DNA of 64,000 bases. Origin: Escherichia phage MIZ6. The DNA lies in the sequence record OR192075.1; one strand, 5' to 3'. The position numbers and the translations under genes are program-made. The notes below the pieces were generated by a model that was not told the DNA's origin, did not search any database, and saw only the letters and a list, made by a program, of their open reading frames with translations. How positions within the stretch are numbered: the first letter of the stretch is position 1; each line of letters starts with the position of its first letter. Positions 15,472-42,651 of the stretch are shown here, piece after piece.

Positions 15472-15500
15472 AGTATAGGGGATCTCGCGATCCCCGTCAA
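15472..15500 (-). promoter_or_regulatory. early-type sigma70 promoter with palindromic spacer
   Basis: Minus-strand TTGACG, 17-bp spacer GGGATCGCGAGATCCCC (perfect palindrome), TATACT; RBS GGAGAATCAAAT follows. Confidence 0.55.
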
Positions 15501-15504
15501 GCAT

Positions 15505-16053
15505 TTATTTTAAATTTTTTCGAATGTATTCAGACCATTCCTTCCCTGTCATTTCGGACCCGTTCTGGAAACTGAAATATTCATACGGCATCGAGTCAAG
15601 ATAAAACAGGATCATACATCGCGCCATATAATACCAATCACGATTAAAGTAAACTACGTTATCACCAGTACCATCAACCCCTTTATCATAACCATCGCGG
15701 GTACGGGCGACCCATTGAATAGTATCATTTTTCTCGCGGATCGTAACAGGTTCCCAATATCCAGCACATCCAGCATGACCACACGAACAAGTCAGGAAAT
15801 ATTGACCTTTTGCTTTGTTGTCATCCCATTCACGATGGATTGGTTCGATCTCGTGAAACAGTGCTAAGCAATCATGATTATGCAACACTGGCTTACCATC
15901 AATCAATGCATGGAATGTATACAAACGACCAGTAGACAAATAGCTATCCTCACGCTCAACCAGTTCAATAGCAATCTTTTTAGCTCGTTCTTTGTGTCGT
16001 TGTGCTTTACGCTTACGGTTTAATGATTTCATATTCACCTCACACATTATCAA
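15505..16053 (-). CDS. hypothetical protein (Cys/His-rich segment LTCSCGHAGCAGYW)
   Basis: 182 aa ORF between nrdD and nrdG (the locus where T4 carries mobE); basic N-terminus. Confidence 0.4.
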   Translation of the reverse strand: MIMCEVNMKSLNRKRKAQRHKERAKKIAIELVEREDSYLSTGRLYTFHALIDGKPVLHNHDCLALFHEIEPIHREWDDNKAKGQYFLTCSCGHAGCAGYWEPVTIREKNDTIQWVARTRDGYDKGVDGTGDNVVYFNRDWYYMARCMILFYLDSMPYEYFSFQNGSEMTGKEWSEYIRKNLK

Positions 16054-16460
16054 AGGTCGCGATATAGTACATTATGAAAATGAGAACTTGCATTACCAAT
16101 ATTGTAGATAATAAATTCTTCATCCGGCGCTTGCGCTACAAATTGAGTATGAGCAACCGCCACAACCTTAAAAATACGATCCGTGATCTTGTGTTTAATT
16201 TCTGCTCCTACTTCCATAGGAACATATTCATGTGTTTCTGTTTCAGTCGCAAAACAGCCATCTTCTTCATAAGCACGAACAAATCGATCGCAATCAGTAC
16301 GCTTAACAAATTCAAGAGTATATAATTCTCGTGAATTGTCGGTATAGACCAACACAGAATTATTCTGATAGCGAATCACATACAGGTTATTATCATCGTC
16401 AATTACGCAAAAGCTACGGATTTGTGTTCCTTCGCCTTTACTCCAGCAGATATTAACCAC
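16050..16460 (-). CDS. hypothetical protein
   Basis: 136 aa ORF, stop overlaps the next start. Confidence 0.4.
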   Translation of the reverse strand: MVNICWSKGEGTQIRSFCVIDDDNNLYVIRYQNNSVLVYTDNSRELYTLEFVKRTDCDRFVRAYEEDGCFATETETHEYVPMEVGAEIKHKITDRIFKVVAVAHTQFVAQAPDEEFIIYNIGNASSHFHNVLYRDL

Positions 16461-16594
16461 CGTTCCTCTAATAAAAAACTTTCCTTTAAATTAAAACTAG
16501 ACAATGTGCTAGCGTGCATTTTCACAACAACACCATCGCCAATTTCCAGTTTACGAAGTTTAACTTCTTTGCTCAGTACACAAAACATCATCAT
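16403..16594 (-). CDS. small hypothetical protein
   Basis: 63 aa ORF immediately downstream of the promoter at 16624-16652 and an RBS. Confidence 0.3.
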   Translation of the reverse strand: MMMFCVLSKEVKLRKLEIGDGVVVKMHASTLSSFNLKESFLLEERWLISAGVKAKEHKSVAFA

Positions 16595-16623
16595 GTTGTC
16601 CTCTCGTTGTTTTCGATGTGAGC

Positions 16624-16652
16624 ATTATACATTAGCTAATCATGTTGTCAAC
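16624..16652 (-). promoter_or_regulatory. early-type sigma70 promoter
   Basis: Minus-strand TTGACA, 17 bp, TATAAT, then CACATCGAAAAC leader and RBS. Confidence 0.6.
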
Positions 16653-16654
16653 AC

Positions 16655-16688
16655 CCCAAAACGAAAAAGCCGACCCTTTCGGATCGGC
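16655..16688 (-). terminator. rho-independent terminator after nrdD
   Basis: Minus-strand hairpin AGCCGATCCgaaaGGGTCGGCT followed by TTTTTCGTTTT. Confidence 0.6.
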
Positions 16689-16694
16689 TGAAAA

Positions 16695-41584: not shown

Positions 41585-41823
41585 AGCGTACAAAGCCATT
41601 TAAAAGCACCACATAAAGCGAGCAGAATACTAGGTATAAACGAGACCAAAACAAGACTACAAAAATCATCTAAGGTAACACCGGAATAGCTACCTACTGT
41701 AACAACACCGATCATCAGACACAGAAAGAAAACAAATGCAATCATAAACAAAGTATTGCTAAACAGTTTAGTGATCATTAGACACCCCACGACGATCAAT
41801 TTCAAAAACTTTTTTATCATCAA
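41581..41823 (-). CDS. small hydrophobic protein
   Basis: 80 aa, two to three TM helices. Confidence 0.4.
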   Translation of the reverse strand: MMIKKFLKLIVVGCLMITKLFSNTLFMIAFVFFLCLMIGVVTVGSYSGVTLDDFCSLVLVSFIPSILLALCGAFKWLCTL

Positions 41824-41971
41824 CGAAGCATGTCACAACTGCCTCGTTGACTTCCGCAAATTGTTGTGTCACCCACTTAAGGTCAGAGCGAAACAATGTT
41901 CTATTAATAACAAATGTTTTACCGCTCTTATCCTTACCCATAAATTTTGCTTTAACCATATCCAATTCCAT
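41768..41971 (-). CDS. hypothetical protein
   Basis: 67 aa soluble ORF. Confidence 0.35.
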   Translation of the reverse strand: MELDMVKAKFMGKDKSGKTFVINRTLFRSDLKWVTQQFAEVNEAVVTCFVDDKKVFEIDRRGVSNDH

Positions 41972-41980
41972 ATTATCACC

Positions 41981-42139
41981 TTATTTGCTAATCGCTAAAC
42001 CCAATCCGAAGAGAGCACCCGATGCTACAGTATACCCGAAAGTTTCAAAGGCAGTAAAGATATCTAAGCCACCAGCTAACAGAGTTGCGGTAAACAGAGT
42101 ACCAGCTACGAACATAAAAGTTTTACCGATAAATTTCAT
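41981..42139 (-). CDS. small hydrophobic protein
   Basis: Start set at MKFIGKTF after GGAGAATCAAAATG; promoter at 42171-42200. Confidence 0.4.
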   Translation of the reverse strand: MKFIGKTFMFVAGTLFTATLLAGGLDIFTAFETFGYTVASGALFGLGLAISK

Positions 42140-42170
42140 TTTGATTCTCCTTTCGTTTGTTTGTGGGGGT

Positions 42171-42200
42171 ATCTTACTACCCACCGTTTCATGTTGTCAA
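42171..42200 (-). promoter_or_regulatory. early-type sigma70 promoter with hairpin around the -10
   Basis: Minus-strand TTGACA, about 18 bp, TAAGAT inside GGTGGGTAGTAAGATACCCCCAC. Confidence 0.45.
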
Positions 42201-42206
42201 CTGTTT

Positions 42207-42599
42207 TTAAGAAAATTTTACTTCGTCTACAATGTCTTTCATGACATTGATTTCCATTCCGGTCAGAACACGTTGGAACATGTGCTGAACATACGCTTTC
42301 AGGTATTCATTTGATGGCTTGCTATCGAAAGTCTTTTTAGTGTAGTAGTCATCACCGAAAGCTACTGTAATTACATTTTCGTCGTCGTTCCAAGCGATAT
42401 AAGCAAATTTGCCGTTATCCCAGAAGCGAGCACTAATTGCTACTTTTGTTGAATCGAATCCTACTTCGCTGTGAGATTCAAGAACTACTTGCGTGCCAGT
42501 TTCTTTATGAATGTAGTAGCGGGATACTAAGTCAAAGTTACGGGTGTAGTGACATTCGAACTTATCTTTAAACATCATCATCATTTTTGATTCTCCCAA
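42207..42599 (-). CDS. hypothetical protein
   Basis: About 125-130 aa; promoter at 42623-42651; start among the MMMM run is uncertain. Confidence 0.4.
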   Translation of the reverse strand: MGESKMMMMFKDKFECHYTRNFDLVSRYYIHKETGTQVVLESHSEVGFDSTKVAISARFWDNGKFAYIAWNDDENVITVAFGDDYYTKKTFDSKPSNEYLKAYVQHMFQRVLTGMEINVMKDIVDEVKFS

Positions 42600-42622
42600 G
42601 TGTTTTTCGTTTCTATGTGTGC

Positions 42623-42651
42623 ATTATGCTATAGTCGTTTATGGTTGTCAA
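42623..42651 (-). promoter_or_regulatory. early-type sigma70 promoter
   Basis: Minus-strand TTGACA, 17 bp, CATAAT, leader CACATAGAAACGAAAAAC. Confidence 0.5.

Follow-up and report, generated by a model that had tools for sequence, protein, structure and literature searches.

The early genes of Escherichia phage MIZ6 are headed by a repeated promoter cassette. We studied a stretch of 64,000 nucleotides from sequence record OR192075.1 of this phage, called the window below, in which 16 such cassettes lie on the minus strand between positions 15427 and 42689. We have little doubt that they are PeSL (promoter-early stem-loop) elements of the kind described in bacteriophages RB49 and phi1 by Arbiol, Comeau, Kutateladze, Adamia & Krisch (2010, Genome Biol Evol 2:140; PMC2839356). 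The element is thus already known, and no new one is involved. Very probably, each cassette unites a promoter, a terminator, a translation start and a linker for recombination. An earlier sequence-only reading of the window had noticed the family as dispersed early promoters with GC-rich hairpins and a conserved leader. It recognized the promoter correctly, but two published roles, transcription termination and recombination that shuffles genes, were missed.

Census and common plan of the cassettes

By its sequence identity, the window is part of an RB49-like T4-type coliphage of the genus Krischvirus. Between positions 38000 and 43000 the identity is 100% with Escherichia phages MIZ2 and MIZ3, and 98% with further members of this genus. 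Over positions 15000-39999, MIZ2 is 100% identical to the window, MIZ3 differs by one base and RB49 is 97.0% identical. In the annotation of MIZ3, whose coordinates below ~25,200 equal the window coordinate minus one, early and replication genes occupy the minus strand up to ~47 kb, and baseplate genes lie on the plus strand beyond.

A cassette profile was built from 13 copies. Searching with it returned exactly 16 minus-strand cassettes in the span given above (E = 1.6e-19 to 8e-6), further copies at 8052 and 1234 on the minus strand and one plus-strand match at 56509. We name each of the 16 cassettes by the first T of its -35 hexamer (Table 1). The sequence-only reading had counted at least 16 minus-strand copies, and the two ends that it gave were exact: 15472 belongs to the -10 of the last cassette and 42651 to the -35 of the first. 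The density is 16 cassettes per 27 kb of small open reading frames (ORFs) versus two in the 15-kb replication block and one in the late block.

All 16 cassettes have TTGAC(A/G), a spacer of 16-18 bp and a -10 hexamer with at least four of six consensus bases. The stricter pattern TTGACA-N15-19-TANAAT has 10 occurrences where 0.48 are expected, and all 100 shuffles stayed below 10. Direct reading of the cassettes (for example, aaaattttttaaaaaagttgTTGACA) gives a constant order of parts: an AT-rich stretch, (G)TTGACA, a 16-18 bp spacer, the -10, a C-rich discriminator, CA(T), a leader, a Shine-Dalgarno (SD) sequence and ATG. The -10 variants are TATAAT, CATAAT, TATACT, TAAAAT, TAAGAT, TAATAT and TACAAT; CAC replaces CA(T) after the discriminator in two cassettes. 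Every cassette ends on an annotated start codon, and the stop codons of upstream genes abut or overlap the -35. At 19150-19155 TTGACA contains the TGA that ends the upstream gene (goF/frd.2), and at 8047-8055 the TAG stop of gene 47 stands directly against TTGACG. Because the upstream stop codon lies inside or against the -35 hexamer, intergenic space is essentially zero.

The 14-mer CATCGAAACGAAAC gave only scattered single chance matches in IMG/VR, and the composite cassette pattern was found there in just three contigs.

Correspondence to published PeSL elements

Each of the 16 cassettes has a syntenic profile match in RB49, phi1 and the genome OZ035808. The published description of PeSLs matches their make-up: a sigma-70 consensus promoter, an AT-rich upstream region, a stable and often polyG/polyC stem-loop, and a 3' SD with ATG (PMC2839356). 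RB49 and phi1 have about 51-52 PeSLs per genome, which are concentrated in hyperplastic regions (PMC2839356). Five stem-loop positions have been described, most commonly between -35 and -10 or overlapping the -10 (PMC2839356); these two are the subclasses that the sequence-only reading had distinguished. Between the PeSLs of RB49 and phi1 and the cassettes of the window we found no substantive difference: the genus, the loci, the anatomy and the link to gene gain, loss and replacement are the same. The PeSL paper is silent on a conserved leader, a CA start motif and a link to RegB (the words “leader” and “RegB” have zero occurrences in PMC2839356).

Two published assays bear directly on the cassettes of the window. 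PeSL206/205 gave ~13,000 Miller units as a promoter, and most clones carried down-mutations in the -35 or the -10 (PMC2839356). In the RB49 record this element is TTGACAggggatcggtgatccccTATAAT, and its 17-bp spacer is identical to that of cassette 25201. The earlier view of the family as early promoters with a leader and a ribosome site is upheld; the promoters are of the sigma-70 type. When the stem-loop of PeSL211/210 was placed between a promoter and lacZ, it cut expression about as much as rrnB T1 (PMC2839356). This element is TTGACAggggatcacgtatccccTATACT in the RB49 record, with the leader acacacatcaaaacgaaacacactttcttaaacGGAGAATCAAAAATG. Its spacer is three central bases off that of cassette 25201 and is identical to the spacer of the cassette 25201 orthologue in phi1 and OZ035808.

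Similar arrangements are known elsewhere. PeSL-like motifs of T4/PST and KVP40/nt-1 (Comeau, Arbiol & Krisch 2014; PMC4122927) likewise combine a terminator and a promoter at the borders of variable genes in hyperplastic regions. Elements at the internal-protein loci of T-even phages were called analogues and not homologues of PeSLs; they have T4-type early promoters and weaker AT-rich stems (PMC2839356). A parallel with morons and integron gene cassettes, which are likewise small accessory genes with their own promoter and terminator, was drawn in the same paper. Unlike in either of these, the PeSL itself recombines through homology, and no integrase or attC-type site is known for it.

Hairpin classes, stability and covariation

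A GC-rich stem-loop is present in 15 of the 16 cassettes, in the spacer in three, over the -10 in seven and upstream of the -35 in five; cassette 28453 has a weak AT-rich stem only. The spacer class has stems of the types GGGGATC...GATCCCC and GGGGAG...CTCCCC. In the second class the -10 lies in the loop, and the discriminator up to -1 forms the 3' arm. The upstream class consists of a hairpin with a T-run, 13-35 bp 5' of the -35. Both subclasses of the sequence-only reading therefore exist, but such hairpins are less general than it implied, because 6/16 cassettes have none in the promoter core (10/16 do), five of these six having the upstream terminator instead. This almost mutually exclusive distribution of core hairpins and upstream terminators suggests that they are alternative ways of doing one job.

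The ten cores with hairpins fold at -10 kcal/mol or below, as do only 1.5% of 33-nt windows drawn at random from the same strand. When only the spacer was shuffled, eight cores had 0-1 of 2000 shuffles that reached the observed energy; the remaining two had 11 and 46. We also pooled the cassettes of the window with those of LF73P4 and OZ035808, both complete and with 42 profile matches per genome, and of parts of RB49 and phi1. Among the 128 distinct cassettes of this set, 109 have a hairpin at or below -8 kcal/mol, which lies over the -10 in 48, upstream in 33, in the spacer in 21 and elsewhere in 7.

Since registers relative to the -10 differ between cassettes, covariation was followed by tabulating the stems directly. 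Paralogues carry GGGAGTA/TACTCCC, GGGGGTA/TACCCCC, GGGTGTA/TACACCC, GGGGATA/TATCCCC and GCGGTTA/TAACCGC, and wobble intermediates such as GGGGGTA/TACTCCC are present as well. Judging by these stems, it is the pairing, and not a sequence, that is conserved. The hairpins are under selection.

A GC-rich hairpin followed by a U-tract, as in intrinsic terminators, was found in the upstream class only. Hairpins in the spacer or over the -10 lack this U-tract and so do not count as intrinsic terminators of the classical kind, but they may terminate transcription nonetheless. Strand asymmetry of wobble pairs, used to tell selection on RNA from selection on DNA, is clear in the upstream terminators, with 12 sense and 0 antisense. 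Spacer-class stems are perfect on both strands, with no wobble among 61 internal pairs. The GATC (Dam) sites inside the GGGGATC palindromes are unremarkable, because the genome does not avoid GATC (observed/expected = 1.1).

Two other roles of the hairpins were considered and not adopted. As antisense terminators, the -10 hairpins would have plus-strand tails that are only moderately T-rich (~4/8), and inside the cassette region the late-promoter motif TATAAATA is absent from the plus strand. Hairpin promoters of the N4 type were rejected on account of hexamers that are perfect sigma-70 signals and of the published activity in uninfected E. coli (PMC2839356).

The discriminator (-6 to -1) is C-rich and free of G in all cassettes (for example, ACACCC, GCACAC, ACTCCC and ACCCCC), and most copies, with or without a hairpin, have C at the second base past the -10. 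Such a discriminator recalls promoters of the rRNA type, whose open complexes are short-lived. The -10-loop hairpins seem to derive from a spacer that became complementary to a discriminator already in place. A strong hairpin without a promoter, GGGGAGA...TCTCCCC, was observed on the minus strand at 36620-36680, between the endolysin gene and vs.8.

Gene shuffling at the cassettes

Comparison with relatives places rearrangements at the cassettes. In LF73P4, near-identity to the window spans all of cassette 25201 and ends at its ATG. Beyond that ATG, at window 25127, LF73P4 has a 5-kb block of small ORFs matching ORF193-210 of RB49, a block that sits ~80 kb away in RB49. On the evidence of the alignments, this junction is a natural translocation of a gene block that was joined at a PeSL. 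The 10 kb to the left of the block in LF73P4 match neither the window nor the examined RB49 stretch. At the site of cassette 27277, LF73P4 lacks gp38, the terminator and the promoter; another cassette, with the spacer CGGGGAGAAATCCCCG, stands there, and homology resumes in the leader. In phi1 an additional small ORF adjoins the terminator of cassette 29695. Altogether, about four of nine breakpoints in four comparisons, a small sample, lie at or near cassettes, which cover ~6% of the region.

Orthologous cassettes are themselves mosaics of other cassettes, with re-assorted variants of the spacer, the -10 and the leader. Concerted evolution of this kind explains by itself much of the leader conservation. 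In RB49, crossovers of mini-circles were mapped to the stretch from the -10 to the ATG, to the loop and to the AT-rich region (PMC2839356). Cassette 15500 and its orthologue in OZ035808 differ over 140 bp only in the loop, which is GCGA in one and its reverse complement TCGC in the other. From the sequences, this looks like a hairpin-mediated flip of the loop or a template switch rather than independent substitutions.

Two insertions were seen near hairpins. One of 644 bp in OZ035808 corresponds to window positions 36697-36719, beside the promoterless GGGGAGA hairpin, and one of 595 bp in LF73P4 adjoins the terminator at 35547-35571.

Leaders, ribosome sites and RegB

The leaders are 22-40 nt long, have 50% A and are nearly unstructured (minimum free energy 0 to -5.2 kcal/mol). 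The sequence-only reading ascribed to them the motif CATCGAAAC(G/A)AAA, which was found with at most one mismatch in 6/16 cassettes; conservation is thus looser than claimed. The motif alone (CATCGAAACRAAA, at most two mismatches) has 9 matches versus 6.8 expected, which is not above chance; information comes from the whole-cassette profile only. The proposed ribosome site was recovered as GGAG(A/T)AT(C/T)AA in 12/16 cassettes, but the other four use GAGGATTATATTATG or GAGGACAACATG.

The phage does encode the RegB endoribonuclease, as had been suggested; its gene (PF10715) is listed in Table 1. The ribosome site of regB itself is GGATAATAAAA at 33940-33950. In RB49, regB uses a GGAU ribosome site and is reported to be cut there in vivo (Uzan & Miller 2010, PMC3014915); the site in the window, GGAUAAUAAAA, agrees with that report. 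The target of T4 RegB with S1 is the single-stranded 11-mer GG*AGRAYARAA (Durand et al. 2006, PMC1702504). In nine cassettes the ribosome site is GGAGAATCAAA, which matches GGAGRAYARAA at 10 of 11 positions, and this region is mostly unpaired in predicted folds. Ten of the eleven exact matches to GGAGAATCAA on the minus strand are ribosome sites of cassettes.

GGAG is present in the ribosome sites of 14/18 cassette-proximal genes versus 22/82 internal genes (Fisher p = 9e-5, for events that are not independent); internal genes often use GAGGATTATATTATG, without GGAG. This enrichment fits the rule known from T4, that RegB acts on GGAG in ribosome sites and so inactivates early messages. Early T4 mRNAs likewise have GGAG in the ribosome site followed by an A-rich single-stranded stretch, as does the cassette site GGAGAAUCAAA. 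By these resemblances, cutting by RegB in the cassette leaders is plausible. If it takes place, a cut after GG is expected in GGAGAAUCAAAAUG RNA and not in GAGGAUUAUAUUAUG RNA.

The motif GAGGATTATATTATG is a second common start signal. It has 13 minus-strand occurrences with at most two mismatches versus 0.4 expected, mostly at operon-internal genes: six are exact (19095, 20328, 20952, 24461, 26917 and 38686) and seven are near-matches, and the motif has no GGAG inside. It resembles T4 sites of the form GAGGAAAUUAUG, at which RegA acts as a repressor. A regA-like gene is located at ~1255-1617.

Proposed mechanism

Standing between two small early genes, each cassette would act as a promoter, a transcription stop and a translation start at once. 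Its near-consensus sigma-70 promoter would serve the unmodified RNA polymerase of the host right after infection, and the probable start is the A in the conserved CA(T), seven bases past the -10. As the hairpin is upstream of this start, it would be transcribed only by read-through from the preceding unit, in agreement with the published role of a terminator or attenuator. There the GC-rich hairpin, be it upstream of the -35, in the spacer or around the -10, would stop or attenuate polymerases arriving from the upstream unit, and by halting them it would insulate the cassette transcriptionally. The short, A-rich and weakly structured leader would then close with the fixed ribosome site from which the first gene is translated. 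A further layer is likely to be added by RegB: the GGAGAAUCAAA sites, which most cassette-proximal genes have, are near the RegB/S1 consensus, and RegB would shut down translation of the first cistrons early.

The same cassettes would serve as places of exchange. Since ~60-100 bp are common to 40-50 copies per genome, homologous recombination of the phage could cross over between cassettes. Such crossovers would delete, insert, swap or move the genes between them and would also homogenise the cassettes. Promoter activity, terminator activity and mini-circles have been shown in the RB49/phi1 system (PMC2839356).

Weighing of alternative explanations

The sequence-only reading suggested that the spacer palindromes are binding sites of a dimeric regulator. 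Extended to the -10 stems, this would make the hairpins operators at which a phage or host protein represses or times the early promoters. They are indeed placed exactly where a repressor would block RNA polymerase, the near-absence of wobble (0/61 in the spacer class) suits a constraint on duplex DNA as well as one on RNA, and, according to a 2026 preprint, a terminator palindrome in bacteria can also be the site of a transcription factor. Protein binding to GGGG...CCCC has also been speculated on, but in recombination (PMC2839356). However, no recognition sequence is common to the arms GGGGATC, GGGGAG, CGGGGAG, GGGAGTA, GGGTGTA, GGGGATA and GCGGTTA. The arms change jointly, keeping the pairing, loops vary in length or are flipped, and the position relative to the hexamers varies too. 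No candidate regulator emerged. About one third of cassettes lack a core palindrome and have a terminator upstream instead, which indicates a shared terminator role, and a stem of the same class lowers read-through in the published assay (PMC2839356). We consider operators highly improbable, and this part of the earlier reading is not sustained. Still harder to accept is that the similarity reflects merely the shared ancestry of duplicated promoters, with stems and leader incidental. Sequence exchange between cassettes is enough to keep the leaders alike, but it does not account for compensatory stem changes, for hairpin stability that is extreme versus shuffles and background, or for the complementary distribution of core hairpins and upstream terminators, and the promoter and terminator activities have been measured (PMC2839356). 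We give incidental similarity almost no credence.

Two other explanations deserve more weight. Hairpins at the DNA level could be cut or bound by the SbcCD-like nuclease gp46/47, endonuclease VII or another protein, so that the cassettes would be active recombination hotspots. Breakpoints and mosaicism fall inside cassettes, the GCGA to TCGC flip in the orthologue of cassette 15500 affects a loop, the spacer-class stems are perfect on both strands, and the window encodes SbcC-like and SbcD-like nucleases and endonuclease VII. On the other hand, 7-bp stems extrude poorly from duplex DNA. One RB49 crossover was mapped within a loop, but the others are outside the stem, in the AT-rich region or in the stretch from the -10 to the ATG, and T4-type recombination requires no special site and less than 50 bp of homology (PMC2839356). 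Active hotspots seem unlikely to us; they would be compatible with a terminator role and do not exclude it. Somewhat more credible, although still doubtful, is that hairpins without U-tracts are promoter-coupled terminators: the occupied overlapping promoter would slow or block the incoming polymerase, and a weak hairpin would suffice. Hairpin and promoter overlap within 35 bp in 10/16 cassettes, the promoters are very strong (PMC2839356) and these hairpins have no U-tracts. A coupled promoter boosts weak overlapping terminators in bacteria (Fletcher et al. 2026, bioRxiv 10.64898/2026.08.19.745784), where the terminator hairpin and the next promoter likewise share the same DNA between tandem genes, which saves space. 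The geometry is compatible, as the phage hairpins end at about -13 or -1 and the bacterial criterion is an RNA 3' end at most 35 bp upstream of the next start. It is not the same, however. The bacterial hairpin overlaps the -35 and has a T-tract before the -10, whereas the phage hairpin fills the spacer or encloses the -10 with no T-tract after it; the preprint deals with neither phages nor PeSLs. Moreover, the stem-loop of PeSL211/210 alone, apparently without a promoter, still gave a strong reduction (PMC2839356).

Some observations weigh against the PeSL reading adopted here, or against the RegB layer added to it. Past the stem, the mean number of T in 8 nt is 2.6 in the spacer class and 1.0 in the -10 class versus 6.2 in the upstream class. 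Core stems have 4 sense versus 0 antisense wobble pairs, a count for which the treatment of terminal pairs matters, and flanking extensions favour antisense. A single stem-loop of the spacer class was assayed, and the lacZ readout mixes termination with RNA destabilisation (PMC2839356). In the literature searched, mapping of start sites or 3' ends for Krischvirus cassettes was not found. As to RegB, the cassette sites have C at position 8, where its consensus has A, and the GGAG enrichment does not consist of independent events, because cassettes are related by descent and gene conversion.

We tentatively consider one extension, which we hold to be less likely than not. The cassette may be a four-part unit, in which GGAGAAUCAAA is a dedicated RegB/S1 target and the hairpins lacking a U-tract terminate only through the overlapping, polymerase-laden promoter. 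The GAGG-type sites of internal genes may then escape RegB.

Positions of the cassettes and neighboring features

Coordinates are collected in Table 1. The copy at 1234 heads gene 43, and its membership in the cassette family is doubtful; PeSLs flanking g43 have been reported (PMC2839356).

Table 1. Cassettes and related features of the window. Hairpin class gives the place of the main stem relative to the promoter hexamers.
Feature	Position	Strand	Name in text	Hairpin class	Details
Cassette 1	42582-42689	-	42651	upstream	terminator hairpin 42669-42689 with T-run; -35 42646-42651; -10 CATAAT 42623-42628; likely start A 42616; SD 42593-42596; ATG 42582-42584
Cassette 2	42137-42200	-	42200	-10 in loop	-10 TAAGAT (42171-42176) in loop of GGTGGGTA/TACCCCC hairpin (42165-42185); SD GGAGAATCAAA; ATG 42137-42139
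Cassette 3	40579-40706	-	40656	upstream	terminator 40691-40706 with T-run; -35 40651-40656; -10 CATAAT; leader long, 40 nt, begins ATCGAAACGAAACACAC; SD GGAGAATCAAA
Cassette 4	40327-40387	-	40387	spacer	palindrome GGGGAG-GATAA-CTCCCC (40364-40382); -10 TACAAT; SD GGAGAATCAAA
Cassette 5	39621-39694	-	39694	-10 in loop	-10 CATAAT in loop of GGGTGTA/TACACCC (39660-39681); leader ATCGAAACGAAAC; SD GGAGTATCAAA
Cassette 6	34278-34337	-	34337	-10 in loop	-10 TAATAT in loop of GGGGGTA/TACCCCC (34303-34322); regB is second gene of unit
Cassette 7	29635-29735	-	29695	upstream	terminator AAAAAGCCATCC..GGTGGCTTTTT (29708-29735); -35 29690-29695; -10 CATAAT; SD GGAGAATCAAA
Cassette 8	28381-28453	-	28453	weak, AT-rich	upstream hairpin only; -10 CATAAT; leader ATCGAAACGAGA; SD GGAGAATCAAA
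Cassette 9	27218-27315	-	27277	upstream	terminator 27294-27315 with T-run; TTGACA-16-TATAAT, TG extension; SD GGAGAATCAAA
Cassette 10	25128-25201	-	25201	spacer	palindrome GGGGATC-GGT-GATCCCC, GGGGATCGGTGATCCCC (25178-25196); -10 TATACT
Cassette 11	24461-24526	-	24526	-10 in loop	-10 TATAAT in loop of ATGCGGTTAT/ATGACCGCAT (24490-24515), GCGGTTA/..ACCGC stem; SD GAGGATTATATTATG
Cassette 12	21239-21301	-	21301	-10 in loop	-10 TAAAAT in loop of ATGGGAGTA/TACTCCCAT (21265-21288), GGGAGTA/TACTCCC type; SD GGAGAATCAAC
Cassette 13	20328-20390	-	20390	-10 in loop	-10 TAAGAT in loop of GGGAGTA/TACTCCC (20356-20375); SD GAGGATTATATTATG; upstream of goF/frd.2
Cassette 14	19095-19155	-	19155	-10 in loop	-10 TATAAT, 16-bp spacer, in loop of GGGAGTAT/ATACTCCC (19122-19143), GGGAGTA/TACTCCC type
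Cassette 15	16592-16689	-	16651	upstream	terminator AGCCGATCC..GGGTCGGCT (16668-16689) with T-run; TTGACA-16-TATAAT; leader ATCGAAAACAAC
Cassette 16	15427-15500	-	15500	spacer	palindrome GGGGATC-GCGA-GATCCCC, GGGGATCGCGAGATCCCC (15478-15495), its first G being the last base of TTGACG; -10 TATACT; SD GGAGAATCAAA
Extra copy beyond the 16-cassette span	7996-8052	-	8052	spacer	TTGACG, palindrome CGGGGAGAAATCCCCG, TATACT; leader not of conserved type
Gene 43 (DNA polymerase) promoter	1171-1234	-	1234		TTGACA-17-TATAAT consensus; no conserved leader or core hairpin
Sole plus-strand copy	56468-56568	+	56509	upstream	terminator 56468-56495; TTGACA-16-TATAAT; leader ATCTAAACAAC; SD GGAGGATAAAT
regB endoribonuclease gene	33518-33940	-	regB		Pfam PF10715, E = 1.1e-48; second gene behind cassette 34337

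The sole plus-strand copy is an early-type cassette within the late baseplate cluster. Two small ORFs and the gene of a second DNA methyltransferase follow it (56468-57981), and together with these genes it looks like an inserted module.

At 47180-47270, the divergent starts of a homing-endonuclease gene (minus strand) and a baseplate wedge gene (plus strand) share the inverted repeat TTTTAGCACCCT...AGGGTGCTAAAATG, which gives both genes an identical ribosome site at their start. Between the arms of the repeat are a promoter-like TTGATA-16-TATAAT and the late-promoter motif TATAAATA (47211-47218).

Implications

The window confirms the PeSL model in newer genomes, most of all through the rearrangements of LF73P4, and does not add new biology to it. 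The RegB target and promoter-coupled termination are absent from the PeSL papers and would tie these elements to current work on promoter-terminator coupling. If the four-part unit exists, any gene captured downstream of a cassette would have its translation confined to the first minutes of infection. PeSLs are the best-documented regulatory sequences that double as linkers of modular phage evolution. They explain how small accessory genes of T4-type phages are gained, lost and moved while their neighbors stay undisturbed.

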